Origin: a virus
Lineage: Duplodnaviria > Heunggongvirae > Uroviricota > Caudoviricetes
Direction: 5' to 3' (one strand)
DNA length: 11,270 bases
IMG/VR virus record: IMGVR_UViG_2695420897_000014
The translations under genes and the position numbers were made by a program. The notes under the pieces are model-generated. The model was not told the origin of the DNA, did not search any database, and saw nothing but the letters and a program-made list of their open reading frames with translations. Positions 1 to 11,270 of the stretch are shown here, in pieces; the first letter of the stretch is position 1; each line of letters opens with the position of its first letter.

Positions 1-122
1 TACGTCATTGAACATATCCAGGACTGGCCGGCAAACCGGGTACGCGATCTGTTGCCCTGGAAAGTTGATCTGAGCTCTCAGTAAATATCAATACGGTTCT
101 GACGAGCCGCTTACTGTTCATG

Positions 123-1175
123 TCATTCTCCTGTTCTGCCTGTATCACTGCCCACTTCATCCAGCCCCTTAACATCCTGCCACGGCCCGTCACCAAACCT
201 GACCTGCAAATGCCGAAAAAAACCCTGAACCCGTGTGGTATCTTTGGGGTCAAGAAAGGTCAGTCCGGTGATGAGTGCGCCATCTGTATCCGGGAACCAG
301 CCATGGCTGTTTGTCTCAATAATGTTTCCCGGCCCCAGACGGAACCGTATTTGCGTCTCCCCCGGGTCGCCCTTCGGCCCCTGAGGGCCAGCGGGCCCCT
401 GTTCCCCCTTTGGCCCGGGAGGTCCCACCACGGTGGGGATTCGGTTTACGGCGTCTTCCGCCGCTATCCTGCTTTGTTCCGCTGACTGTGCGCTTTCTGC
501 TGACTCCCGGGCTTTTTCTGCTGCGGTCGTTGCATCCCTGGCTGCATTACCGGCTGCACTTTCTGCCGTCTTTCTTGACAATTCAGCATCTGCTGCACTT
601 TGTGATGACTCACTGGCTTTTTGAGCGGCCGCAGAAGCCGAGGACGAGGACGCATCCTCTGACTGCTTTGCTGAGGCTGCACTTTCTGCCGCCTGCCGGG
701 CTGACTCCGATGCCTCCCCTGCTGAAGTGTCAGCATTTGCAGCGCTCTCTTCTGCCTGACTGGCTGATATGCCGGCATTCCTCGCTGACGTCTCCGCCTC
801 TCCGGCATTCTTCTTCGCCTCCTCTGCGTTACGCACCACCTCTTCCACCATCAGTTCAAAACGGCGCAGTGCCTCAGGACGGGCATCATCCTCCGTCATG
901 GCACCGAGAAAATCATTCAGCGTACCGGGTCGGGAATCTTCATACACGGTGATGGTCCCGGCATGTGAAGGCGGAAAACCTTCAACCAGCAGGGTGACGC
1001 TGTACTGACCATGCTCAACATCCATGCTGTAACGTCCGGCTTCATCCGGATTTTCAGAGGCCACCGTGTTCACCACCACCGTGCTGCTGGTTCGTCTGGC
1101 CTTCAGCACAATGGTGCAGTTCTGTACTGGTTTTCCTGTGCCATCTTTAAGCACGCCAGAAATTTTTACTGTCAT
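123..1175 (-). CDS. stf: Side tail fibre protein (Stf-like), N-terminal conserved domain followed by an Ala/Ser/Glu-rich low-complexity region and a collagen-like Gly-X-Y stretch; 350 aa, probably truncated or only the proximal part of the fibre
   Basis: The N-terminus MTVKISGVLKDGTGKPVQNCTI...VVVNTVASENPDEAGRYSMDVE...GFPPSHAGTITVYEDS matches the lambda Stf N-terminal anchor domain as I recall it. Position immediately downstream of lom is as in lambda. The motif GPPGPKGEQGPAGPQGPKGDPGE lies at residues 251-273. A GGTGGA Shine-Dalgarno-like motif sits about 5 nt upstream of the ATG at 1175. Confidence 0.8.
   Translation of the reverse strand: MTVKISGVLKDGTGKPVQNCTIVLKARRTSSTVVVNTVASENPDEAGRYSMDVEHGQYSVTLLVEGFPPSHAGTITVYEDSRPGTLNDFLGAMTEDDARPEALRRFELMVEEVVRNAEEAKKNAGEAETSARNAGISASQAEESAANADTSAGEASESARQAAESAASAKQSEDASSSSASAAAQKASESSQSAADAELSRKTAESAAGNAARDATTAAEKARESAESAQSAEQSRIAAEDAVNRIPTVVGPPGPKGEQGPAGPQGPKGDPGETQIRFRLGPGNIIETNSHGWFPDTDGALITGLTFLDPKDTTRVQGFFRHLQVRFGDGPWQDVKGLDEVGSDTGRTGE
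360..425 (-). repeat. Collagen-like Gly-X-Y triplet repeat (about 7 triplets) inside the stf coding sequence; seen as GGNCCN periodicity on the plus strand
   Basis: Plus strand 361-425 reads cccgggtcgcccttcggcccctgagggccagcgggcccctgttccccctttggcccgggaggtcc, which translates on the minus strand as GPPGPKGEQGPAGPQGPKGDPGE. Confidence 0.8.
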
Positions 1176-1189
1176 ACTTTTCCACCAAT

Positions 1190-1222
1190 AAAAAAAGCCC
1201 GCAGCAGTGACGCCACGGGCTT
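1190..1222 (-). terminator. Rho-independent terminator downstream of lom (minus strand)
   Basis: Stem AAGCCCG (1195-1201) pairs with CGGGCTT (1216-1222) across a 14-nt loop. On the minus strand the hairpin is followed by a run of 7 or more U (plus-strand A run 1190-1196). Confidence 0.6.
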
Positions 1223-1326
1223 CAGGACAGTGTAACTTTACGTTTCCTCAAACGCAGTTCACCCCATAAGGTGGATGAACCTGCGTATCATAACAATATT
1301 TACAGAAGATAAATCGGCGTCTGTTG

Positions 1327-1926
1327 TCAGAAACGGTATCCGATACCAACAATAAATGCATCCGTTCGCCAGTCGCCACTACCGGAACCTTCATAAGCAA
1401 GGTCAATGGTCACGGATTCGGTCGGGTTAAACTGCACGCCAGCCCCCCACGCCAGAGACGTGTTGCTGTGGCGACCGTCATCACTTCCGGTCAGCACATC
1501 GTGCGTTTTCCCCTTGTTGTCAGTTACGCGGAGATAATCCCCGGAGAAAGTCGACACACGGCTGTAAGCCACACCCGCCATCGCATACGCGCTGAACCAT
1601 TCATTCACGCGCACAGACGGCCCCGCCATCACGCTGAACCAGCGGTTACGCACGGAATCTTCATGCCAGCGGGTATCGCTGTAATGCGTTTTTTGCTCAT
1701 CTTTGGCATTGGCATAACTGAATGACGTCACCAGCCCCAGCGTGTCCGTAAACTCATAACGGTATTTCACGTTAATCCCGTTCAGATCATCACTACCGGG
1801 AACGTTCGTCGAGGCATGGAGATACCCCGCGCTCAGAGTGGACTGATGTTCTGCTGCACTCGCTGGCGTAGCAGCGGCGACCTGCCAGACTACTGCGGAC
1901 AAAATAACAGCACATAATTTACGCAT
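1327..1926 (-). CDS. lom: Lom/Ail/PagC/OmpX-family outer-membrane beta-barrel protein (lambda Lom homolog), 199 aa with N-terminal signal peptide
   Basis: A signal peptide (MRKLCAVILSAVVWQVAAATPASA) is present. The motifs GINVKYRYE, SVMAGP, SAYAMAGVA, AYEGSGSGDWRTD and the C-terminal FIVGIGYRF (terminal aromatic typical of beta-barrels) match lambda Lom as I recall it. Position between J and stf is as in lambda. A GAGAGG ribosome-binding site lies 6 nt upstream of the ATG. Confidence 0.9.
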   Translation of the reverse strand: MRKLCAVILSAVVWQVAAATPASAAEHQSTLSAGYLHASTNVPGSDDLNGINVKYRYEFTDTLGLVTSFSYANAKDEQKTHYSDTRWHEDSVRNRWFSVMAGPSVRVNEWFSAYAMAGVAYSRVSTFSGDYLRVTDNKGKTHDVLTGSDDGRHSNTSLAWGAGVQFNPTESVTIDLAYEGSGSGDWRTDAFIVGIGYRF

Positions 1927-1950
1927 AATTACCTCTCGCTTTTCTGCAAT

Positions 1951-1974
1951 AAAAAAGGCGCCATTTCTGGCGCC
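1951..1974 (-). terminator. Rho-independent terminator immediately downstream of J and upstream of lom (minus strand)
   Basis: Perfect 7-bp stem GGCGCCA (1957-1963) / TGGCGCC (1968-1974) with a 4-nt loop. On the minus strand it is followed by TTTTTTATT (plus-strand A run 1951-1956). Confidence 0.7.
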
Positions 1975-1993
1975 CGTATCTGGGTTATAAAAT

Positions 1994-4900
1994 TCAGCTA
2001 ATCGTGATGCCTGCAGTGGCTTTCTTCATCACCACAACCAGCAAATCGCTGATACTTGCTGTGGGATACCAGTTATTTACCAGCCATGCTGACACCGAAA
2101 ACTCCAGTGTCATGTGACCGTGACCGGCAGGCATATCAATAACACCACTGTAAATCAGCGTATTATCCAGCGCGGTACGGTTATAAATTTCAGCACCGTT
2201 TTTCCGCACTATCAGACGGCATGAGGAGTAAATATCAGTATGCTCTTTCTCATGTTTAGCGCCGCTGAATGCCACCGCCGGAATAACAATCTGCCGGTCA
2301 AACGGCTGATCGTCATAAACCCTGACGGTAATGGTTCCTGATGGCCACCGCTCCGGTGCACGGGAGTCCCGGGGGAAAGCTTTGCCCACTGTTTTAACGA
2401 GATCGCCTTCAATCTGGTTCGCGGACAATTTTCCCAGAACCCGACAGTTCTCGTTAATCGTGACGTTGTTGAGCGTCCCGGAGTTCGCATTCACGTTACC
2501 GCTGATATCGGCATTTTTCGCCGTCAGCCGCCCGTCCGGTGTCAGGGAAAATGCCGGAGGATTACCGCCGCTGGTAATGGTGGGAGCCGTCAGATATTTC
2601 AGGAACACTTCATTCATAAATATCTGATCGCCCTGACCAACAAACATCGGCTTTGTGTTGCCATTCGCAGGATTAATCATCGCAATCCTGTCTGCCGCCA
2701 GCAGCACCTGACTCTGCATTCCTGCTGGCGTATTCTCAATACCGGCACCGATACCCGCAATATAAAGGCGTCCGTCCTGCATCTGCTGCAGTTTCACGGC
2801 CCACATGCTGTTCAGGTTATTATTTGTATCAACCTGAACTTTCTGTATCTGCTGGATTGCCGCACTCTGGTCTTCCAGTTTTTTATTGACGGTCTGCGTG
2901 ATTTCATTGCTGACATTCGTAATGGACGTCCTGATTTCAGCCAGGTCCGGCGCAAGCTGACCGTTATCAATCTGCGTCCACAGCTCCTGGGCCAGATGTG
3001 TTTTCCCGATTTCTCCTTTGAAAAAATCCAGGTAACCTTCCGCATCATCGCTCGCCCGACCGACAGCCTCCACGAATGCCGATTTGCCAACGGTGTTCAC
3101 ACTGCGAACGTAAAAATAATAATCATGGCCCGGTTTGATATTGATACTGGCGGCTATCCAGTACAGCGCCGTACCAAGATAACGCGCGCTGGTTTCAACC
3201 TGCCTGATATCAGCAATCCGTTTTTCCGAGAACCAGAACTCAAACTGTACCGTCGGATCATAAACCGCAAAATGCGGCGTGGCGGTTATCTGAAAATAGC
3301 CCGGCGTCAGCTCAATCCGCGACGGTGCTGCCGGTGCGGCAATCCGGAACGATACCGATGCCGGATCGCCCTGCTGTCCCCACGCATTTACCGCCCGGAC
3401 TGTCAGCCTGTAATTTCCCAGCGCCAGTTGCGTGAAGCGGTATGTAGTTTCCGTCGTCCTGGCCGTGCTGACCAGCCGCTCACTGCCATCGTCCGCTGCC
3501 ACGGTCAGGCGAAGCAGGAAGCTCACGCCCTTCACCACCTTCGGCGTGTCCCAGCGCGCCAGCACCTGATATTCCCCACTGTCTGCGGTGACTTCTGCGG
3601 TCAGGTGCTGCACCGCTGGCGGCGTGACACCATTCACCGTGCCGCTCTGGTCGCCGTCAAAGTGCGCCCCGTTATCCACGATGGCCTCTTTTTCCGGTAC
3701 ATGCTGCACGGCGGTGATGGCATACGTGCCGTCGTCGTTCTCACGGATACTCACGCAGCGGAACAGGCGCTGGCGCAGCATCGGCAGCTTCAGCCCCCAC
3801 ACGCTGTACTCGGCAACGCCGTCAGGAACACGGCTCACTTTTACCTTCACGCCATCAGTGACGGACTGAACCTCCACGCTGACCGGATTGCCACTTCCGT
3901 CAACCAGGCTTATCAGCGTGGTGCCGGAAGATGGCAGCGTGATTTCACGGTCGAGCGTCAGCGTCCGGGTCTGGCTGTTCACCGCCAGCACGCGCCCGCC
4001 GGTGCTGATACCGGCATAGTCATCATCACAGATTTCAATGACATCGCCCGGTACATGGCGAAGCCCTTCTGCACCCACGCTGAAGTCCACGGTCTGCGTT
4101 TCCAGCAGTTCCGTTTTAATCAGCCACAGCCCGGCGCGGTGCACCTGCCCCCGGCTGGTACAGCCAAAGGCATCCATCTTCGTGACGTGACGACCGTAAC
4201 GGGCAATGGCCTGCGTATCCTCCACAAGCTCTGTCGCCGTCTCCCAGCCGTTGTTCGGGTCAATCCAGTTCACCTCAACGGCATTATGGCGGTCCTTCAG
4301 GGCGCTGAAGCTGTAGCGGAACGGCGCGCCATCATCCGGCATCACCACATTACTGCGGTTATAGGTCCACACCTTATCTGATGGTCGGTCCTGCACGAAC
4401 GTCAGCGTCTGCCCGTTCCATACCGGCATACAGCGCATCGCCGAGCAGAAATCACTGAGCACATCCCACGCCTTGCGCTGTGTGGTCAGGTACGCATTAC
4501 AGGTAATGCGCGGCTCCGTGCCGCCAAAGCCATCCGGCACTGACTGGTCGCAGTACTGGCCGATGACATACAGCGCCCATTTGTCCACATCCGCCGCACC
4601 AAGACGTTTCCCCATGCCGTAGCGTGGATGGGTCAGCATATCCCACAGACACCAGGCCATGTTGTTGCTGTATGCCGGTTTAAACGTTCCGTCCCAGATA
4701 CCGCTGTATTGCCGCGTCTGCGGGTTATAATTCGACGGCACCTGCAGAATACGCCCGCGCAGATGATAATTACGGCTCACCTGCTGGCTGCCGAACTGCT
4801 CCGAGTCCACCTGCACGCCGACCAGTGCCGTGTTCGGGTAGCCCTGTTTCACATCGATGATTTCGGTGTATGACGACCAGAGCGTTTTGTTCTGCAGCTG

Positions 4901-5473
4901 GTCTGTGGTGCTGTCCGGCGTCATTCTGCGCATCCGGATATTAAACGGGCGCGGCGGCAGGTTATCCACCACCACCGAGGCCAGATACTGCGAGGTGGTT
5001 TTGCCCTTAATGGTGATGTCTTTTTCCGTCACCCAGCCACCGTTACGCTGTATCTGAACCAGCAGGCGGACTTCCGACGGATTCCGGTCCCCCTTTGAGG
5101 TGGTTTCCACCAGTGCCTGCACACCGAAGGTAAAGCGCAGACGGTCGATGTTTGCCGACGTGATGGTCCGGGTGATCGGCGTGTCATATTTCACTTCCGT
5201 ACCCAGCACCGTCTCGGAGCCGGAGGATTCAAATCCCTCCGGCGGTGTCTGCTCCTGCTCACCTGCCCGGAACACCACCGTGACACCGGATATATTGGTA
5301 TTCCCCTCACTGTCCAGCACCGGCGTACTGTTCAGCAGCACGCTTTTTAATCCGTCCACCGGACCTTCAACCGGCCCTTCGCTGATGGCATCGATCACAC
5401 TCAGCAGCTGCGTGGACTTCAGGTTGTCCCTCGCTTCGCGCGGGGTATGCCCCTTACTGCTTCCTTTACCCAT
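1994..5473 (-). CDS. J: Host specificity protein J (tail tip central fibre / receptor-binding protein), 1159 aa
   Basis: Single uninterrupted 3.48-kb ORF. The N-terminus [24 protein letters not shown] and long internal stretches are recognisable as lambda gpJ family. It lies directly downstream of I, as in lambda. GGAG/GAGGA motifs sit upstream of the ATG. Confidence 0.95.
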
Positions 5474-5490
5474 TCCTCACACTCCATAAA

Positions 5491-5515
5491 CAACAAAGCC
5501 GCCCAAAAGGCGGCT
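5491..5515 (-). terminator. Putative hairpin terminator downstream of the lipoprotein moron (minus strand)
   Basis: Stem AGCCGCC (5497-5503) / GGCGGCT (5509-5515) with loop CAAAA. The minus-strand downstream sequence is U-rich (TTGTTGTTTAT) but not a clean U-tract. Confidence 0.4.
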
Positions 5516-5539
5516 CATGAGTTACGACAGGATTAACTA

Positions 5540-5878
5540 TTATTTACATGCATTAACACTATCAGCAAAAATTTTTGGCGTTAATGCTGGTACACGTTCA
5601 TAAAGAGTAAAACTACTGCCATTTCCTGCTTTTTTGATATCAAGCACAACATCATATCCCCCCATAGCCTGTGGAACTAAAAGGCTTACCCCATTCTCAA
5701 TAGGAAGGGATGTTATAGGTGTTCCATTACCAGCCCATTGTCTGGATATGCAGCCTGACAATTCATCAATATTTTTTAATGAATTACCTTCCATTACAGG
5801 TTTTCCGGATTTTACGTAATCCAAAGATTTACATCCTGTTAAGGCAATAATCGTGCAGAATAAAATCGTTTTGTTCAT
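5540..5878 (-). CDS. Small predicted outer-membrane lipoprotein of unknown function (112 aa from the ATG at 5878), AT-rich moron inserted between I and J; candidate superinfection-exclusion or receptor-masking protein
   Basis: MNKTILFCTIIALTGC is a classic signal peptidase II signal with lipobox L-T-G-C. Lys at +2 implies Lol sorting to the outer membrane. The gene is visibly AT-rich against GC-rich flanking tail genes. Lambda has no gene between I and J. The ORF-track start at 5890 is a TTG; the ATG at 5878 is the more plausible start. Confidence 0.7.
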   Translation of the reverse strand: MNKTILFCTIIALTGCKSLDYVKSGKPVMEGNSLKNIDELSGCISRQWAGNGTPITSLPIENGVSLLVPQAMGGYDVVLDIKKAGNGSSFTLYERVPALTPKIFADSVNACK

Positions 5879-5951
5879 ATAGCTAACCAATAGAATAATT
5901 ATCAGTGTTCGATATAAATATTAAATCAGTTAGAACATGAGTAAAATAATA
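5879..5951 (-). promoter_or_regulatory. AT-rich intergenic region upstream of the lipoprotein gene, possible moron promoter
   Basis: On the minus strand the I stop-to-ATG spacer reads ...ACTGATTTAATATTTATATCGAACACTGATAATTATTCTATTGGTTAGCTAT-ATG. It contains a -10-like TGATAAT and weak -35-like candidates. No strong match, so this is speculative. Confidence 0.25.
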
Positions 5952-6593
5952 TTACCGCCCAATTACCACAACCTGACCACCATCCCCTTCATCTGCCGTG
6001 CTGATCTCCTGAGATGCCACACGTGACCCCACGCGCATTTCACCGTACAGAACAGGCAGGACATTGCCCTGGGCAACCATGTTATCCAGTGAGGAGAAAT
6101 AGGTGTTCTGTTTGCCGTTATCCGTTGTCTGTGTACGGGGAGTTCTGGCTTTCGGTGCCAGCATCTGCGCCACACCACCAAGCGTCATCGCCGCACCCAT
6201 TGAAAAGAGAATGTCACTGAAAGCGATACTGATCCCCGGCATCCAGATTGCCGTAGCAATCAACGCCGCACCCAGCACCGCCTGAAACACACCGCCACTT
6301 TTTGCTCCCGCAAGACGCGGCACGATGTGGATCACGGCACCATTTGCCAGCGGCTCATTAAGACGGGATGATAATTCGGTTTCTCCTGCATCCCGCCCGG
6401 CAATCCGTACCTGATACCAGCCATCGCTCAGTTTCTGACGAAACGCCGGGAGCTGTGTGGCCAGTGCCCGGATGGCTTCAGCCCCCGTTTTCACACGAAG
6501 GTCGATGCGGCGGCCAAATCGTTGCAAATCCCCGTAAAGGCAGATGCGTGCCATGCCCGGTGACGCCAGAGGGAGTGTGTGCGTCGCTGCCAT
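5952..6593 (-). CDS. I: Tail assembly protein I (lambda gpI homolog), 213 aa
   Basis: MAATHTLPLASPGMARICLYGDLQRFGRRIDLRVKTGAEAIRALATQLPAFRQKLSDGWYQVRIAGRD... and the C-terminal ...VGSRVASQEISTADEGDGGQVVVIGR match lambda gpI as I recall it. Its 5' end overlaps the 3' end of K by about 100 nt, as in lambda. Confidence 0.9.
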   Translation of the reverse strand: MAATHTLPLASPGMARICLYGDLQRFGRRIDLRVKTGAEAIRALATQLPAFRQKLSDGWYQVRIAGRDAGETELSSRLNEPLANGAVIHIVPRLAGAKSGGVFQAVLGAALIATAIWMPGISIAFSDILFSMGAAMTLGGVAQMLAPKARTPRTQTTDNGKQNTYFSSLDNMVAQGNVLPVLYGEMRVGSRVASQEISTADEGDGGQVVVIGR

Positions 6594-7234
6594 TTGTCGG
6601 TATACCTCTCTCGTTTGCTCAGTTGTTCAGGAATATGGTGCAGCAGCTCGCCATCACCACAGTAAATAGCGGCATGATTCGGCACCGATGAACCAAAGCA
6701 GCACAGCAGCACATCGCCCGGCTGCGCCGCTGACAACGGCACCTGATACAGCCCCGTTGCCTCCAGATTATCCAGATAGAGATTCTGACCGTGACGCCAC
6801 CAGTCATCCTCACGATGAAAGTCCGGCATCTCAATCCCCGCCAGATGGTAAGCATCCCGGAACAGTGTGTAACAGTCCGTCACCCCGTACTCAAAGCGCC
6901 GCCCGGTGAGATGCGGCACACAGCGGAACTTGTGAATCGCCCCCCGGCAGACCAGCCACCACGGCAAATCGCTCTGCACCTGTAGCCGCCGGTCAGCCTC
7001 ACTCAGCCAGGGCAGACCACCGGGGTGGCTGTGGACCAGCGCCACAATCTCACCCTGCATCTCTGCCTGCAGCCAGTCCTCCGGAGCCATCCGGAAATAA
7101 TCCTCCGGCTCACCGGAAATATTCACGCCGGGAAAATATCTTTCCCCCTCCGGCGTTCTCACCACGAAGCCGCACGACTCCGCTGGCGCACATCGCCGGG
7201 CGTGCGCCAGAATCGCTGATTCTGTCTCTGTCAT
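6491..7234 (-). CDS. K: Tail tip assembly protein K (lambda gpK homolog) with N-terminal JAB/MPN (JAMM-like) and C-terminal NlpC/P60-like domains; 247 aa from the first ATG, with an alternative internal start at 7090 giving the 199-aa lambda-annotated form
   Basis: JAMM-type motif HSHPGGLPWLSEAD with an upstream Glu (APAESCGFV). The C-terminal half carries conserved Cys/His (GVTDCYTLF...HAAIY...HHIP) consistent with NlpC/P60. Position between L and I is as in lambda. Confidence 0.9.
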   Translation of the reverse strand: MTETESAILAHARRCAPAESCGFVVRTPEGERYFPGVNISGEPEDYFRMAPEDWLQAEMQGEIVALVHSHPGGLPWLSEADRRLQVQSDLPWWLVCRGAIHKFRCVPHLTGRRFEYGVTDCYTLFRDAYHLAGIEMPDFHREDDWWRHGQNLYLDNLEATGLYQVPLSAAQPGDVLLCCFGSSVPNHAAIYCGDGELLHHIPEQLSKRERYTDKWQRRTHSLWRHRAWHASAFTGICNDLAAASTFV

Positions 7235-7239
7235 GGGAT

Positions 7240-7938
7240 TTACTGCGAAAGTTTGTTAATGGAAAGGAAGCCGCCAAAGTTGCCGACGTTATTGCGAAAC
7301 TTACAACCGCTCAGGCATTTGCTGCATTTATCCTTCGTGATATCGGACGTTGGCTGGTCATATTCATCCGCGACCGCCGGACCGTGATAACCGCACTCAT
7401 CGCCGCGATAGGTCCAGGTGCAGGTGTTGGCCAGCATGATACGTCCCGGAAAAACAGCGCCGTCCGTTTCCGTCGGCGTGGACAGTACAAAGGAGGCACT
7501 GACCGCGCTCAGTTCGCTGCACTGCTCGATGCGCCAGCGGCTGATCACCTCCTGCTCCGGATCGGCGTCGCTGTTTCCGTTGACGAAATTCACCGCATCC
7601 AGAAAACGGGCGTAAACCTTACGCCTGACCACCGTTCCGCCGACCAGACTCTGCATATCTTCCGCCATGCCGGTGACCATACCGTACAGGTTAGAAACCG
7701 TCAGCGTGGGGCGCGTACTGGTGCCTTTGCCATTCAGTTCAAAACCACTCCCCTGAATGGGATACGGCTGATACTGTCGCCCCTGCCAGGTGACCGGCTC
7801 ACCTTTTTCGTTCTGCTCATTACAGAAAAAATAACGTTCTCCACCGACCTCTGTCAGGTCGATTTCCCAGAGCACCACGCTGGCAGACTGCTCCGCACGG
7901 GTGCATTCATTCAGTGTTTCCTGTCGGATATCCTGCAT
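7240..7938 (-). CDS. L: Minor tail protein L (lambda gpL homolog), 232 aa, with C-terminal Cys cluster
   Basis: MQDIRQETLNECTRAEQSASVVLWEIDLTEVGGERYFFCNEQNEKGEPVTWQGRQYQPYPIQGSGFELNGKG... and the C-terminal cysteines (CTWTYRGDECGYHG...CSKCLSGC) match gpL. The ATG overlaps the M stop as ATGA. Confidence 0.95.
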   Translation of the reverse strand: MQDIRQETLNECTRAEQSASVVLWEIDLTEVGGERYFFCNEQNEKGEPVTWQGRQYQPYPIQGSGFELNGKGTSTRPTLTVSNLYGMVTGMAEDMQSLVGGTVVRRKVYARFLDAVNFVNGNSDADPEQEVISRWRIEQCSELSAVSASFVLSTPTETDGAVFPGRIMLANTCTWTYRGDECGYHGPAVADEYDQPTSDITKDKCSKCLSGCKFRNNVGNFGGFLSINKLSQ

Positions 7939-8267
7939 CAGTTCACCACCTGTTCAAACTCTGCGCTGAACTCAACACGCAGCATACTGACCCGCGACGA
8001 CCATTTTGCGCAGGTCACCTTTATCTGCCGGTAGCCATAAGGCGGCGTCCACAGAAAGGCCTTCCAGCCCCCGTGCTCAGCCAGAAACGACTCCAGCGCC
8101 GCGGCCTCCCAACGGGGAACAGAAAGCGTCACGCTGTACGTTTTCAGGTCAGTGTTCAGCCCGGCAGGCGCTCGCTGGGAATAGCCATCACCAAAGCGCA
8201 CCTTTCTTACGGAAGGGGCAGAAGCCACATCCATACCGGGTTTCACTTTCCAGCGGAAGGTTTTCAT
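7938..8267 (-). CDS. M: Minor tail protein M (lambda gpM homolog), 109 aa, copy 1
   Basis: MKTFRWKVKPGMDVASAPSVRKVRFGDGYSQRAPAGLN...SRVSMLRVEFSAEFEQVVN matches gpM. The start overlaps the stop of the upstream H fragment, and its own stop overlaps the L start (ATGA). Confidence 0.95.
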   Translation of the reverse strand: MKTFRWKVKPGMDVASAPSVRKVRFGDGYSQRAPAGLNTDLKTYSVTLSVPRWEAAALESFLAEHGGWKAFLWTPPYGYRQIKVTCAKWSSRVSMLRVEFSAEFEQVVN

Positions 8268-8863
8268 CGTCCACCTCCGGAGAACAGACCACCATCGCGC
8301 ATCTGCCCGGTCACAACATCCATTGCCGCCTTACGGGCTACGTCATAAACAGCCTTCAGTGCCTGTGGCCCTATCTGACCGTTCGTGCCGTCGTTGTTAA
8401 TCACCACATGGTTATTCTGCTCAAACGTCCCGGACGCCTGCGACCGGCTGTCCGCCATGCTGCCCGGTGTACCGACATAACCGCCGGTGGCATAGCCGCG
8501 CATCAGCCGGTAGAGATTCCCCACGCCAATCCGTCTGGTTGCCTCCTTCGTGAAGACGAATTCACCGCGGTGAACAATTCCCGCTGGCTCATATTTGCCG
8601 CCGGTTCCCGTAAATCCTCCGGTTGCAAAATGGAATTTCGCCGCAGCTGCCTGAATGGCTGTACCGCCTGATGCGGATGCGCCGCCACCAACAGCCCCGC
8701 CAATGGCGCTACCGATACTCCCGACAATCCCCACCATTGCCTGCTTAAGCAGAATTTCTGTCATCATGGACAGCACGGAACGGGTGAAGCTGCGCCAGTT
8801 CTGCTCACTGCCGGTCAGCATCGCTGCCATATTCTGTGCAATACCGTCAAAGGTCTGCGTGGC
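8264..8863 (-). CDS. H: 3'-terminal fragment of tape-measure gene H (C-terminal 199 aa), copy 1, truncated at the N-run; partial, not an intact gene in this assembly
   Basis: Translation ATQTFDGIAQNMAAMLTGSEQNWRSF...GGFTGTGGKYEPAGIVHRGEFVFTKEA...MRDGGLFSGGGR equals the C-terminus of the full H copy at 9633..10232 with a few substitutions. Its upstream end abuts 10 N. Confidence 0.75.
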   Translation of the reverse strand, partial: ATQTFDGIAQNMAAMLTGSEQNWRSFTRSVLSMMTEILLKQAMVGIVGSIGSAIGGAVGGGASASGGTAIQAAAAKFHFATGGFTGTGGKYEPAGIVHRGEFVFTKEATRRIGVGNLYRLMRGYATGGYVGTPGSMADSRSQASGTFEQNNHVVINNDGTNGQIGPQALKAVYDVARKAAMDVVTGQMRDGGLFSGGGR

Positions 8864-8873
8864 NNNNNNNNNN
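8864..8873. other. Assembly gap (10 N) joining two partially redundant sequence blocks
   Basis: Ten consecutive n characters at 8864-8873. Confidence 0.99.
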
Positions 8874-9307
8874 GCGCTCAGTTCGCTGCACTGCTCGATG
8901 CGCCAGCGGCTGATCACCTCCTGCTCCGGATCGGCGTAACTGTTTCCGTTGACGAAGTTCACCGCATCCAGAAAACGGGCGTAAACCTTACGCCGGACCA
9001 CCGTTCCGCCGACCAGACTCTGCATATCTTCCGCCATCCCGGTGACCATACCGTACAGGTTAGAAACCGTCAGCGTGGGGCGCGTACTGGTGCCTTTGCC
9101 ATTCAGTTCAAAACCGCTCCCCTGAATGGGATACGGCTGATACTGTCGCCCCTGCCAGGTGACCGGCTCACCTTTTTCGTTCTGCTCATTACAGAAAAAA
9201 TAACGTTCTCCACCGACCTCTGTCAGGTCGATTTCCCAGAGCACCACGCTGGCCGACTGCTCCGCACGGGTGCATTCATTCAGTGTTTCCTGCCGGATAT
9301 CCTGCAT
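8874..9307 (-). CDS. L: 5' fragment of minor tail gene L (N-terminal about 144 aa), copy 2, truncated at the N-run; partial
   Basis: Translation MQDIRQETLNEC...VNGNSYADPEQEVISRWRIEQCSELS is identical to L copy 1 residues 1-143 except D to Y at one position. It is fused in frame by chance across the N-run to the H fragment in the ORF track (8264..9307). Confidence 0.75.
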
Positions 9308-9636
9308 CAGTTCACCACCTGTTCAAACTCTGCGCTGAACTCAACACGTAACATACTGACCCGCGATGTCCATTTTGCGCAGGTCACCCTGATCTGCCGC
9401 CAGCCATAAGGCGGCGTCCACAGAAAGGCTTTCCAGCCCCCGTGCTCAGCCAGAAACGACTCCAGCGCCCTGGCCTCCTCGCGGGAGACAGAAAGCGTCA
9501 CGCTGTACGTTTTCAGGTCAGCATTCAGCCCGGCAGGCGCACGCTGGGAATAGCCATCACCAAAGCGCACCTCCCTGACGGAAGGAGCCGATGTCACATC
9601 CATCCCGGGTTTCACTTTCCAGCGGAAGGTTTTCAT
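9307..9636 (-). CDS. M: Minor tail protein M (lambda gpM homolog), 109 aa, copy 2 (divergent allele)
   Basis: Same length and ends as copy 1, with 9 amino-acid differences (for example PRWEAAA versus SREEARA; Y to W; K to R). ATGA overlaps with H upstream and the L fragment downstream. Confidence 0.9.
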   Translation of the reverse strand: MKTFRWKVKPGMDVTSAPSVREVRFGDGYSQRAPAGLNADLKTYSVTLSVSREEARALESFLAEHGGWKAFLWTPPYGWRQIRVTCAKWTSRVSMLRVEFSAEFEQVVN

Positions 9637-11270
9637 CGTCCACCTCCGGAGAACAAGCCACCATCACGCATCTGTGCCTGAATTTCATCACGGGCACCCT
9701 TGCGGGCCATGTCATACACAGCCTTCAGCGCCTGTGGTCCAATCTGCCCGTTCGTGCCGTCGTTGTTAATCACCACATGGTTATTCTGCTCAAACTTCCC
9801 GGACGCCTGCGACCGGCTGTCCGCCAGACTGCCCGGTGTACCGACATAACCGCCGGTGGCATAGCCGCGCATAAGCCGGTAAAGATTCCCCACGCCAATC
9901 CGGCTGGTTGCCTCCTTCGTGAAGACAAACTCACCACGGTGAACAATCCCCGCTGGCTCATATTTGCCGCCGGTTCCCGTAAATCCTCCGGTCGCAAAAT
10001 GGAATTTCGCCGCAGCTGCCTGAATGGCTGTACCGCCTGATGCGGATGCGCCGCCACCAACAGCCCCGCCAATGGCGCTACCGATACTCCCGACAATCCC
10101 CACCATTGCCTGCTTAAGCAGAATTTCTGTCATCATGGACAGCACGGAACGGGTGAAGCTGCGCCAGTTCTGCTCACTGCCGGTCAGCATCGCTGCCATA
10201 TTCTGTGCAATACCGTCAAAGGTCTGCGTGGCCACGCTTTTTACCTGCGAAAAACTGTCCGTCGCACTTTCCGCCCACTCACCCCAGCCGGACTTCATCC
10301 CGGCCATCCAGCTTCCACGAAGCTGCTCCTCCGCAGACCAGGTGTTCTTCAGTGCAGATGTGGCCTTCGCCAGCGCATCCGGATTATCACCGTACACCTC
10401 ACGAAGGCGCTGCTCTTCCGACTCCCGCTGCGCCTGACGGTCGGTGAGTCCGCGGGCTTTTGCGCTGATTGCCGCCTGCTTCGCACTCTGCTGCTGTTCA
10501 AACCGCGCCGCCTGCTGTGCCAGCTCATTCAGCCGTTTCTGGTGTTCAACCTTGTCGCCCAGCTCAGCCAGCTGGCGTTTGTACTCCAGCGTCTCTTTCT
10601 CATGAGCCAGCAGGGATTTTTCCTGCTCAGATAACTGCCGTTTCGTGGCGGCCTCTTTCAGGACCACATACTGATTTTCCGCTTTCCATAAATCCCGGCG
10701 CTGCTGGCTGATTTTTTCATTCGCACCGCTGTGCTTCTCCAGCGTCCTGAGCTCAGTTTCAAGCGACAGCATGGCTGCATGCGCCCGGTCTTCCTGGCGC
10801 TCACCGGCAGACACCTTCACACCTGACGGCTTTTTCTGCGTCGATTCATAATCCTTTTTTGCCGACGCCATCAGCGTGTTGTAATCCGCCTGCAGGATTT
10901 TTCCGTCTTTCAGGGCCTTATTCAGCTCTTCCTGCCGGGCGGTATATTTCTCCAGTGGCGTCAGCAGGCGCTCATACGCCTTCTGCGCCTCTCCGGTATA
11001 CTTCAGCTGTGACGACTCACGCTCAGCCCTGTCCCTTGCCGCCAGTTCACCGGCTTTTTCCATATCCGACTGCAGCGTGGCCGCTGCCAGACCCAGACGG
11101 GCATTTTCCCGGTCATCCCATGCGCCCTGAAGGTTGGCCCGGAAAGAGGAGGTTTTACCGCGGCGCTGGCTCCGGCTCTGGTACCACTGCCATTTTTTAT
11201 CCGCCTCATCAAATGCCTTCTGCGCACTGGCGAGCATATCCGCTGAGGATTCCGGACGACCGATATCCAG
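9633..11270 (-). CDS. H: Tail length tape-measure protein H (lambda gpH homolog), 5' end beyond the window (partial, at least 545 aa shown)
   Basis: The reading frame is open to the window edge; the upstream in-frame codons 11238-11270 translate LDIGRPESSAD before MLASAQ. Coiled-coil-like charged region, then the conserved C-terminal block QVKSVATQTFDGIAQNM...GGFTGTGGKYEPAGIVHRGEFVF...MRDGGLFSGGGR, typical of lambda gpH. Confidence 0.9.
   Translation of the reverse strand: MDIGRPESSADMLASAQKAFDEADKKWQWYQSRSQRRGKTSSFRANLQGAWDDRENARLGLAAATLQSDMEKAGELAARDRAERESSQLKYTGEAQKAYERLLTPLEKYTARQEELNKALKDGKILQADYNTLMASAKKDYESTQKKPSGVKVSAGERQEDRAHAAMLSLETELRTLEKHSGANEKISQQRRDLWKAENQYVVLKEAATKRQLSEQEKSLLAHEKETLEYKRQLAELGDKVEHQKRLNELAQQAARFEQQQSAKQAAISAKARGLTDRQAQRESEEQRLREVYGDNPDALAKATSALKNTWSAEEQLRGSWMAGMKSGWGEWAESATDSFSQVKSVATQTFDGIAQNMAAMLTGSEQNWRSFTRSVLSMMTEILLKQAMVGIVGSIGSAIGGAVGGGASASGGTAIQAAAAKFHFATGGFTGTGGKYEPAGIVHRGEFVFTKEATSRIGVGNLYRLMRGYATGGYVGTPGSLADSRSQASGKFEQNNHVVINNDGTNGQIGPQALKAVYDMARKGARDEIQAQMRDGGLFSGGGR

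Follow-up and report, generated by a model that had tools for sequence, protein, structure and literature searches.

The window, by which we mean the whole 11,270-nucleotide stretch of viral DNA analysed here (IMG/VR record IMGVR_UViG_2695420897_000014), encodes a lambda-like J protein that in all probability has exchangeable distal modules and ends in a 1A2-type, OmpC-binding receptor-binding domain (RBD), which lies outside any lipoprotein cassette. We put the probability of this reading at about 0.88. The module boundaries, the match to the 1A2 sequence, the fold and the population frequency were observed directly. The assignment of the RBD to OmpC, not LamB, is supported by published data on the 1A2 chimera, and by analogy the native prophage would be expected to behave like that chimera, that is, to depend on OmpC and to be independent of LamB. 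The receptor of such an RBD has already been published as that of gpJ 1A2, so the finding is real and ordinary, and the current understanding is unchanged by the window J.

The J gene and its mosaic relation to lambda J

The features of J that the argument requires are the following, with the evidence for each in brackets.

1994..5473, minus strand: gene J, central tail fibre or tip attachment protein, 1159 aa, intact (ORF list, translation)
3014..5473, minus strand: J residues 1-820, hub plus a pair of FNIII/Ig domains, matching lambda J at about 98% identity (block alignment, 8iyk, DNA identity)
2624..3013, minus strand: J residues 821-950, variable module 1, consisting of the alpha-helical shaft and the upper beta-prism fibre, with about 50% identity to lambda (alignment)
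2873..2965, minus strand: approximate site of 28 extra shaft residues (gap columns; helicity inferred from the lambda structure)
2465..2623, minus strand: J residues 951-1003, lower beta-prism, a conserved island and natural recombination junction (alignment; module-1 alleles across RBD types)
1994..2464, minus strand: J residues 1004-1159 and stop, Ig-like RBD of 1A2 type (PF12421, 1A2 match, AF2/Foldseek)

Translation of the open reading frame confirms the C-terminal end and the minus-strand placement that a preliminary description had given for J. The NCBIfam profile NF049904 (lambda_TipJ) scores 2383 bits, above its cut-off of 1950, with residues 1-1159 lying on profile positions 1-1163. 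The Pfam families FNIII-A_GpJ, Phage-tail_3, Ig_J, Ig_J_second, Phage_Tail_Tip and Ig_GpJ_C are present, and the accessions run along the protein as PF24801, PF13550, PF24421, PF24489, PF09327 and PF12421. This is the domain order of lambda TipJ: hub, two FNIII/Ig domains, helical shaft, beta-prism fibre and C-terminal Ig-like RBD, where the names of the shaft and the fibre are taken from PMC11101478. Lambda J structures in the PDB (8iyk for 1-835) align over residues 1-835 and 866-1158, and an identical protein, WP_053899916.1, is known from E. coli. Judged by ORFs and Pfam hits against the lambda annotation, J also stands where it does in lambda: the tail-tip genes H, M, L, K and I precede it, and lom and stf follow. 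The window belongs to a lambda-like E. coli prophage, with J as its tail-tip and central-fibre protein, by homology a trimer.

The window J was aligned to lambda J (NC_001416) with MAFFT and identities were counted per 50-residue block, while the DNA was compared by blastn. Up to residue 800, identical residues number 47-50 out of 50 in every block. Identity then falls to 25/35 with 15 gap columns in block 801-850 and 14/37 with 13 gap columns in 851-900, is 30/50 in 901-950, returns to 46/50 in 951-1000, and falls again to 27/50, 23/50 and 16/50 in blocks 1001-1050, 1051-1100 and 1101-1150. By module, residues 821-950 are about 50% identical to lambda J and 28 residues longer, residues 951-1003 are 92% identical, and the RBD (1004-1159) is about 42% identical. 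The shaft between DFFKG and MWAVK accordingly counts 74 residues in the window J and 46 in lambda. The DNA follows the same course: identity to lambda is 95.7% over 2977-5504 and ends at 2977, a segment at 2444-2807 aligns at 74.7%, and blastn finds no alignment to lambda in 1994-2443. Judged from the alignment, the drop from 98% to 42% identity inside a single protein is far beyond chance.

The preliminary description called the N-terminal part of J lambda-like, which the identity of about 98% over residues 1-820 bears out. It also described the C-terminal 300 or so residues as divergent. The divergence is real; however, it extends over about 340 residues and is not uniform, being a mosaic interrupted by the conserved island at 951-1003. 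Among IMG/VR loci, module 1 has two alleles whose distribution is semi-independent of the RBD type, both being found with several RBD types, and separate RBD types are carried on 98%-identical J backbones. The equivalent of lambda residue 964, the fusion point used in engineering (PMC11338833), falls within the conserved island of the window J. This placement explains why fusion at this residue works, as it is inside a conserved junction between two distal modules that nature itself combines in different ways.

The receptor-binding domain is of the gpJ 1A2 type

The last 174 residues of J, from KNADISG onward, are the segment shared with gpJ 1A2. The 1A2 sequence was taken from Supplementary Table 1 of bioRxiv 10.1101/2025.02.28.640725 as machine-read text with glitches. 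Window J 986-1159 is identical to this row at 169 of 174 positions, and every legible position agrees. The five mismatches are of the machine-reading type and none lies in a variable loop; over the 957 lambda-derived residues of that entry there are 10 comparable glitches.

Published delivery data for 1A2 (Nature 2024, PMC11338833) show that it uses OmpC, accepts the EDL933 (O157) allele, refuses the K-12 allele and can dispense with LamB. Delivery reaches 98% in MG1655 with OmpC-EDL933, compared with 5% in wild-type MG1655, which is lamB+ and has K-12 OmpC, and 2% in the lamB ompC double deletion with OmpC-MG1655; the figures for the EDL933 allele rest on Fig. 1b and Extended Data Figs 1 and 8 of that paper, since the source data for panel C of Extended Data Fig. 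2 duplicate, in their text form, the values of panel B. In the double-deletion background, 1A2 was efficient on 20 of 23 OmpC variants (PMC11338833), and it fails on G1, G2 and G40. The preliminary description considered a different receptor specificity likely, and the same RBD, as gpJ 1A2, indeed takes OmpC instead of LamB. It further expected no high identity to lambda J residues of about 900-1132, and the alignment gives about 42-48% for the RBD.

These data bear on two other readings. First, the RBD could still be LamB-specific, a lambda domain that has merely drifted. The window and lambda RBDs do have a fold and a Pfam domain in common, and lambda J can change its porin, to OmpF, by a few mutations (discussed in PMC11101478). 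However, on a lambda backbone the same RBD gives only the 5% delivery into lamB+ MG1655 quoted above, it delivers into lamB-deleted cells when a suitable ompC allele is supplied, and its predicted bottom loops are 22% identical to those of lambda. We regard a LamB-specific RBD as almost certainly wrong. Second, natural hosts may offer a further or different receptor, such as another porin or O-antigen reached via the side fibre, with OmpC scored only by virtue of the K-12 background. The receptor data were all obtained in K-12 derivatives carrying a P2 side-fibre chimera, the window has its own side tail fibre gene, and delivery to O157 strains in the STEC study required a matching side fibre. 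Against this, delivery tracked the supplied ompC allele in an otherwise identical strain, which argues for direct recognition by the RBD, and for A8, its closest relative, a solved structure shows the complex with OmpC. A further or different receptor in nature is very improbable, and OmpC is retained as the probable receptor of the window RBD.

The literature on related phages was also considered. The papers that name PhiR46_1, PhiR55_1, vB_EcoS-783R2 and the PPompW phages contain no receptor data for them. A review of STEC phages gives only BamA, FadL and LamB as receptors for other Stx phages, and a 2026 receptor-prediction preprint deals with the GpJ of Drexlerviridae, not with lambda-like J. 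The OmpC phage phi330 (PMC12502783) was tried as a candidate of the same RBD type, using its six published loop residues; no constant offset matched at least 4 of the 6, so phi330 is treated as a different RBD type.

Fold and predicted loops of the RBD

PF12421 (Ig_GpJ_C) matches window J 1029-1159. The AF2 monomer model of the RBD (pLDDT 82) has an Ig-like fold closest to the A8 gpJ-OmpC structure 9wcb, so that prediction and sequence point to the same relative: the best Foldseek matches are 9wcb and 9wca (A8 gpJ with and without OmpC), followed by lambda 8xck and 8xcj, and the nearest solved structures by sequence are again 9wca/9wcb (E 3e-118), with lambda next (7e-97). The model matches 9wcb with E 8e-20, TMq 0.70 and 63% identity, and lambda 8xck with TMq 0.73. 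PDB entry 9wcb shows the central tail fiber of A8 (gpJ 713) in its open state, together with the OmpC G17 of E. coli EDL933.

Four loops are predicted at one end of the domain, which is labelled the bottom from the strand topology of the AF2 model.

2345..2380, minus strand: predicted bottom loop L1, J 1032-1043 (AF2 secondary structure; low identity and indels relative to lambda, 434 and A8)
2237..2263, minus strand: predicted bottom loop L2, J 1071-1079, GAKHEKEHT (AF2 model; indel hotspot among RBD types)
2162..2170, minus strand: predicted bottom loop L3, J 1102-1104, LDN (AF2 model, alignment)
2045..2083, minus strand: predicted bottom loop L4, J 1131-1143 (AF2 model, alignment)

The identity of these predicted loops is 22% to lambda, 13% to 434 and 37% to A8, compared with 45%, 49% and 63%, respectively, for the Ig domain outside them; the top loops are conserved.

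A cassette of the lipoprotein moron and the RBD is not supported

An insertion between I and J carries a lipoprotein gene.

5505..5955, minus strand: AT-rich insertion (moron) between I and J (GC 0.37 in 5501-6000; blastn breakpoints relative to lambda)
5540..5878, minus strand: lipoprotein gene, 112 aa, lipobox MNKTILFCTIIALTG followed by C, PHROG 914 with no assigned function (translation)
5496..5516, minus strand: terminator-like hairpin 3' of the lipoprotein gene and shortly before the start of J (consensus scan)

The moron replaces the short I-J spacer of lambda, which measures about 33 bp between the flanking alignments. Its lipoprotein gene, the only one in the window, is upstream of the J start and about 3.5 kb from the end that encodes the RBD. 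The 112-aa lipoprotein has no match in Pfam, NCBIfam or PADLOC, and the best fold match of its AF2 model (pLDDT 84) is a weak one to the Francisella lipoprotein Flpp3 (TM 0.52). PHROG 914 lipoproteins are conserved in prophage tail-tip clusters of Escherichia, Klebsiella, Enterobacter and Kluyvera.

The preliminary description considered the two genes consistent with a receptor-swap cassette of the RBD and a cognate exclusion lipoprotein. In such a cassette the RBD and a superinfection-exclusion lipoprotein would move as one unit; T5 pb5 with Llp and phi80-type J with Cor are pairs of this kind. A genuine lipoprotein moron does adjoin J, and all three lipoprotein-associated RBD types with a known receptor (1A2, 434 and A8) use OmpC. 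The 1A2 type is moreover found in 29 of 40 lipoprotein-anchored IMG/VR loci, compared with 19 of 62 lipoprotein-free J-anchored loci (odds ratio about 6, p = 4e-5; the loci are non-independent). However, this enrichment of about sixfold is no strict link. The other lipoprotein-anchored loci bear 434-type (6) or A8-type (5) RBDs, and among sampled IMG/VR loci the lipoprotein is missing in 19 of 20 J-anchored loci bearing the window RBD type. VT1-Sakai and PhiR55_1 keep the same RBD with no lipoprotein gene, and a Klebsiella homologue sits between K and I, beside unrelated J proteins of more than 3100 aa. The gene also adjoins J at its 5' end, so that the whole 98%-conserved backbone separates it from the RBD, and the protein has only the weak Flpp3-like fold match and no family match, as given above. 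An obligate RBD-lipoprotein cassette is contradicted by these observations, and a cassette of the proposed kind is very unlikely.

Speculatively, the moron could encode an uncharacterised prophage factor that shields lysogens from OmpC-using lambdoids, while the longer shaft could separately tune reach through O-antigen; we give this combination only a small chance.

The actual neighbour of the RBD-coding end is lom, which lambda has in the same place.

1327..1926, minus strand: lom, Ail/Lom outer-membrane beta-barrel protein, 199 aa (Pfam PF06316, E 2e-125)
1956..1975, minus strand: terminator-like hairpin and T-run directly past the J stop codon (consensus scan)

With lambda Lom the window Lom shares 42% identity; with the Lom proteins beside 1A2-, 434- and A8-type J it shares 85-98%. 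It was considered as the lipoprotein in question and ruled out, being of the Ail/Lom beta-barrel family with an ordinary signal peptide and no lipobox. The annotation of phage 434 has a terminator at the same place past the J stop. Further along, a second specificity in adsorption may come from the side tail fibre (stf, 123..1175).

The 1A2-type RBD is the commonest J end in E. coli

The 1A2-type RBD is carried by 3382 of 5426 complete E. coli genomes, more than any other J end, and the 434 type by 2112 genomes. The lambda type occurs in 98 of the 5426, all at 99% identity or more and laboratory strains foremost. To describe the window J end as departing from a canonical lambda domain is therefore to reverse the situation in natural E. 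coli, where the lambda type is the rare one. Among GTDB species representatives, the 1A2-type RBD is restricted to Escherichia and Shigella. Viable natural phages with the window RBD exist, namely PhiR55_1 (on E. coli C) and PhiR46_1 (on ECOR13).

Proposed mechanism and its meaning

The distal part of J consists of a longer shaft allele, a conserved lower-fibre junction and a 1A2-type Ig-like RBD, the last being probably one of at least four alleles that recombine onto a common J backbone at the conserved junction. The RBD would bind the trimeric porin OmpC, accepting most natural E. coli OmpC alleles, O157/EDL933 included and K-12 excluded. By homology with lambda-LamB and A8-OmpC, the four bottom loops of each RBD would enter the extracellular mouth of the porin. 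Binding may then spread the RBD trimer, and the change would pass via the beta-prism and the helical shaft, opening the tail tip for DNA ejection.

For annotation, the point is that a lambda-like J gene does not mean a LamB receptor. Natural E. coli hardly ever carry the lambda-type end, and for each of the three common ones (1A2, 434 and A8) the published receptor is OmpC; thus, the last 150 or so residues of J should suffice to give the likely receptor and, in part, the OmpC allele range. In this way a likely receptor can be given for thousands of prophages, among them many from O157:H7.

Comparison with known systems

Lambda J (P03749; 8iyk, 8xcj, 8xck) has the same domain order and the same RBD fold as the window J, with the near-identity over residues 1-820 given above, and the gene neighbourhood H-M-L-K-I-J-lom-stf is shared. 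The lambda RBD, however, is 42-48% identical to that of the window (47.7% from KNADISG to the end), its receptor is LamB and its shaft is 28 residues shorter. Phage 434 J resembles the window J in having a lambda-like backbone and in targeting OmpC; its RBD is 49% identical overall but 13% identical in the bottom loops, which makes it a separate allele class. In VT1-Sakai (Sp15, an Stx1 prophage) and the O157:H7 PPompW prophages, J is 99.7% identical to the window J over the last 322 residues; in VT1-Sakai, J is split by mutation and the I-J gap is without the lipoprotein moron.

The A8 gpJ RBD (9wca, closed; 9wcb, open with OmpC G17) is the same kind of Ig-like, OmpC-binding domain and is 67% identical from KNADISG on. 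Its bottom loops are 37% identical to those of the window, with indels in L1 and L2, and its allele range differs from that of 1A2: A8 accepts K-12 OmpC, which 1A2 refuses, and is weak on G55, G56 and G67, on which 1A2 is strong. The closest likeness is to gpJ 1A2 of Eligo Bioscience (PMC11338833; bioRxiv 10.1101/2025.02.28.640725), which has the same C-terminal 174 residues at every legible position, all variable loops included. The two differ upstream of this segment: gpJ 1A2 was engineered by fusion at lambda residue 964 and keeps the lambda shaft and upper fibre, whereas that module is represented in the window J by the natural alternative allele, with its 28 additional residues.

Mosaic structure of J

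The window, an 11,270-nt contig from a draft assembly of E. coli, carries a minus-strand tail operon of the lambda type, comprising a partial H, then M, L, K, I, an AT-rich insert, J, lom and a side-tail-fibre gene.

Features of the J region (J domain terms are those of lambda J, PMC11101478)
123..1175, minus strand: side-tail-fibre gene
1327..1926, minus strand: lom
1994..5473, minus strand: J, the tail-tip (central-fibre) protein, 1159 aa
5540..5878, minus strand: lipoprotein gene, 112 aa, lipobox LTG|C
J residues 821-950: module 1, alpha-helical shaft and upper beta-prism, 28 extra residues
J residues 951-1003: island, lower prism
J residues 1004-1159: module 2, Ig-like receptor-binding domain (RBD)

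The exact J protein is deposited as WP_053899916.1/CTT17859.1 (E. coli). It scores 2383 bits against the NCBIfam model NF049904 (cut-off 1950) and shows the Pfam order FNIII-A_GpJ, Phage-tail_3, Ig_J, Ig_J_second, Phage_Tail_Tip, Ig_GpJ_C; it belongs fully to the lambda TipJ family. Aligned to lambda J (1132 aa, NC_001416), each 50-residue block of J 1-800 has 47-50 identical residues, followed by 25/35 with 15 gap columns (801-850), 14/37 with 13 gap columns (851-900), 30/50 (901-950), 46/50 (951-1000), and 27/50, 23/50 and 16/50 in the blocks 1001-1050, 1051-1100 and 1101-1150. In blastn, DNA identity to lambda is 95.7% up to a breakpoint at window 2977 and 74.7% over 2444-2807, and the final 450 nt of J gave no alignment to lambda. 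The preliminary description, which held that the C-terminal end of J departs from lambda J, was right: this end does not align at high identity to lambda J 900-1132, and the divergent part, about 340 residues, consists of two variable modules with a conserved island between them. The 28-residue excess of the shaft over lambda, four heptads, lies at about window 2873-2965 (J about 837-867).

Elsewhere in the operon, a run of 10 N at 8864-8873 marks a scaffold join. Window 1-8863 begins within the C-terminal part of H, and 8874-11270 encodes H, the first 145 residues of L and a second copy of M (9307..9636; 101/110 identical to that at 7938..8267). On this layout, the ORF at 8264..9307 (347 aa) is an L/H assembly chimera and not a gene. 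Phage 434, VT1-Sakai and strain 602687 have a side-tail-fibre gene for 437 aa (1314 bp). The window gene encodes 350 aa, and the pieces of its blastn alignment suggest that about 240 bp are missing from within the Ala/Ser/Glu-rich repeat region. Downstream of this gene, the contig end cuts a fibre C-terminal or assembly gene.

Identity and receptor of the RBD

Among solved structures, 'A8 gpJ 713' (PDB 9wca/9wcb, E 3e-118) is closest in sequence to the last 322 J residues, with lambda J (8xcj) behind it (E 7e-97). Over the stretch that runs from the KNADISG motif to the J end, identity is 67.1% with A8, 49.1% with J of phage 434 and 47.7% with that of lambda. Foldseek against the PDB with an AF2 model of J 985-1159 (pLDDT 82) gave 9wcb as best match for the RBD, 'Open state of A8 gpJ 713 central tail fiber with OmpC G17 from E. 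coli EDL933', and also the closed A8 fibre (9wca) and the closed and LamB-bound lambda structures (8xck, 8xcj; TMq 0.70-0.73).

A8 and 1A2 are natural J C-termini. Eligo Bioscience joined them to lambda J, with residue 964 as the fusion point, so that lambda particles would target OmpC in place of LamB (PMC11338833). Supplementary Table 1 of a STEC preprint from the same group (10.1101/2025.02.28.640725) gives the 1A2 protein, whose non-lambda tail, in machine-read text, matches window J 986-1159 at 169/174 positions. The five mismatches comprise a TL/LT swap, one surplus Q, an A lost at a line break and a lost V; comparable reading errors occur in the lambda part of the entry (10 in 957 residues). 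Since the mismatches are of this type and all variable-loop residues are identical, we treat the window RBD as the 1A2 RBD. The question of its receptor had thus been answered before, in published work and in the PDB.

In the published work (PMC11338833), 1A2 delivery reached about 98% of cells of MG1655 with the EDL933 ompC allele, 5% of wild-type MG1655 (lamB+, K-12 OmpC), and 2% of MG1655 minus lamB and ompC carrying OmpC-MG1655. In a lamB ompC double-deletion background, it was efficient (76-99%, highest dose) on 20 of 23 natural OmpC variants and failed on the other three: the MG1655 allele (G1), G2 and G40. Delivery by 1A2 thus requires OmpC and is decided by its allele, whereas LamB is not required and does not suffice. 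The proposal that this phage uses a different receptor from lambda is thus supported, with no LamB requirement in the 1A2 data. In the text version of the source data of Extended Data Fig. 2 of the same paper, the 1A2 and A8 figures given for panel C (OmpC-EDL933) are the same as for panel B (OmpC-MG1655) and clash with Fig. 1b and Extended Data Figs 1 and 8; this is probably a copy error in the sheet.

Distribution of RBD types and the lipoprotein gene

The counts below are of megablast matches to the J end (its last 477 nt) in 5426 complete E. coli genomes.

RBD types in complete E. coli genomes
1A2 type (window): 3382 genomes, 7473 places, at most 9 per genome; 994 records at ≥99%
434 type: 2112 genomes
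A8 type: about 1600 records at ≥90%
lambda type: 98 genomes, all ≥99%; top matches are lab strains

The window allele is the norm, not the exception, in natural E. coli prophages. Over its last 322 residues, the window J shares 99.7% identity with its counterparts in the Stx1 prophage VT1-Sakai, the PPompW prophages and vB_EcoS-783R2, and 96-98% with those in the viable phages PhiR55_1 and PhiR46_1. Of the GTDB species representatives, those carrying the type are E. coli, Shigella flexneri, E. albertii and E. ruysiae.

We typed 139 IMG/VR loci with lambda-like J genes (backbone about 98% identical), in which the last 150 J residues fall into discrete classes. The J-anchored sample held 20 loci of 1A2 type, 22 of 434 type, 13 of A8 type, 5 of an A8-like 82% subtype, and 4 of lambda type, all identical to lambda.

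The RBD had also been proposed to form a receptor-swap cassette with the lipoprotein as its cognate exclusion factor. This lipoprotein gene, the sole one in the window, lies in a 451-bp insert (5505-5955, GC about 37%) that replaces the lambda I-J spacer of about 33 bp; a terminator-like hairpin follows the gene. The gene borders J on the 5' side, whereas the end that encodes the RBD, some 3.5 kb away, has lom as its true neighbour. Among 40 lipoprotein-anchored loci with typable J, the RBD is of 1A2 type in 29, 434 type in 6 and A8 type in 5; the gene is missing in 19/20 1A2-type loci of the J-anchored sample, and in VT1-Sakai and PhiR55_1. The enrichment with the 1A2 RBD (odds ratio about 6, p = 4e-5, the loci not being independent samples) does hold within this sample, but co-occurrence is by no means strict. 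Position and distribution therefore leave the cassette reading unsupported.

The exact lipoprotein occurs on at least 1000 contigs. Homologues of 50-60% identity are found in Klebsiella, Enterobacter, Kluyvera and Jejubacter; a Klebsiella one (52%) lies between K and I, adjoining J proteins of >3100 aa. The protein had no match in Pfam, NCBIfam or PADLOC, belongs to PHROG 914 (unknown function), and its AF2 model (pLDDT 84) weakly matches the fold of the Francisella lipoprotein Flpp3. Lom belongs to the Ail/Lom beta-barrel family and has a leader of the signal-peptidase-I type; the window copy shares only 42% identity with lambda Lom, but 85-98% with Lom downstream of 1A2-, 434- and A8-type J. 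On these identities lambda's Lom is an outlier, as is its RBD.

Probable mechanism and comparison with lambda

In lambda, each RBD enters LamB with four bottom loops. This binding makes the RBD trimer spread, and a signal travels up the prism and flips the helical shaft, so that the tip opens (PMC11101478). An open state of A8 with OmpC exists, according to the title of 9wcb. The predicted bottom loops of the window model (J 1032-1043, 1071-1079, 1102-1104 and 1131-1143), placed on that face from strand topology, are the most divergent RBD parts, with 22% identity to lambda, 13% to 434 and 37% to A8, versus 45%, 49% and 63% in the remainder of the domain. The three loops predicted at the top (DDQPFD, NG, PAGHG) are conserved. 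In this model, the RBD fits a design of conserved transducer and variable sensor. By analogy with lambda, the loops of the window J would insert into the porin, the RBD trimer would spread, the shaft flip and the tip open.

The RBD of lambda J has the same fold as the window RBD by Foldseek. Module 1 has two alleles, each combined with several RBD types: 14 loci join a 434 RBD to the window shaft, and 5 join a 1A2 RBD to the lambda shaft. Across prophages, the window shaft allele and the lambda-like one assort semi-independently from RBD type. These recombinants are natural counterparts of the engineered 1A2 chimera and put the point of exchange inside the conserved island, which includes residue 964.
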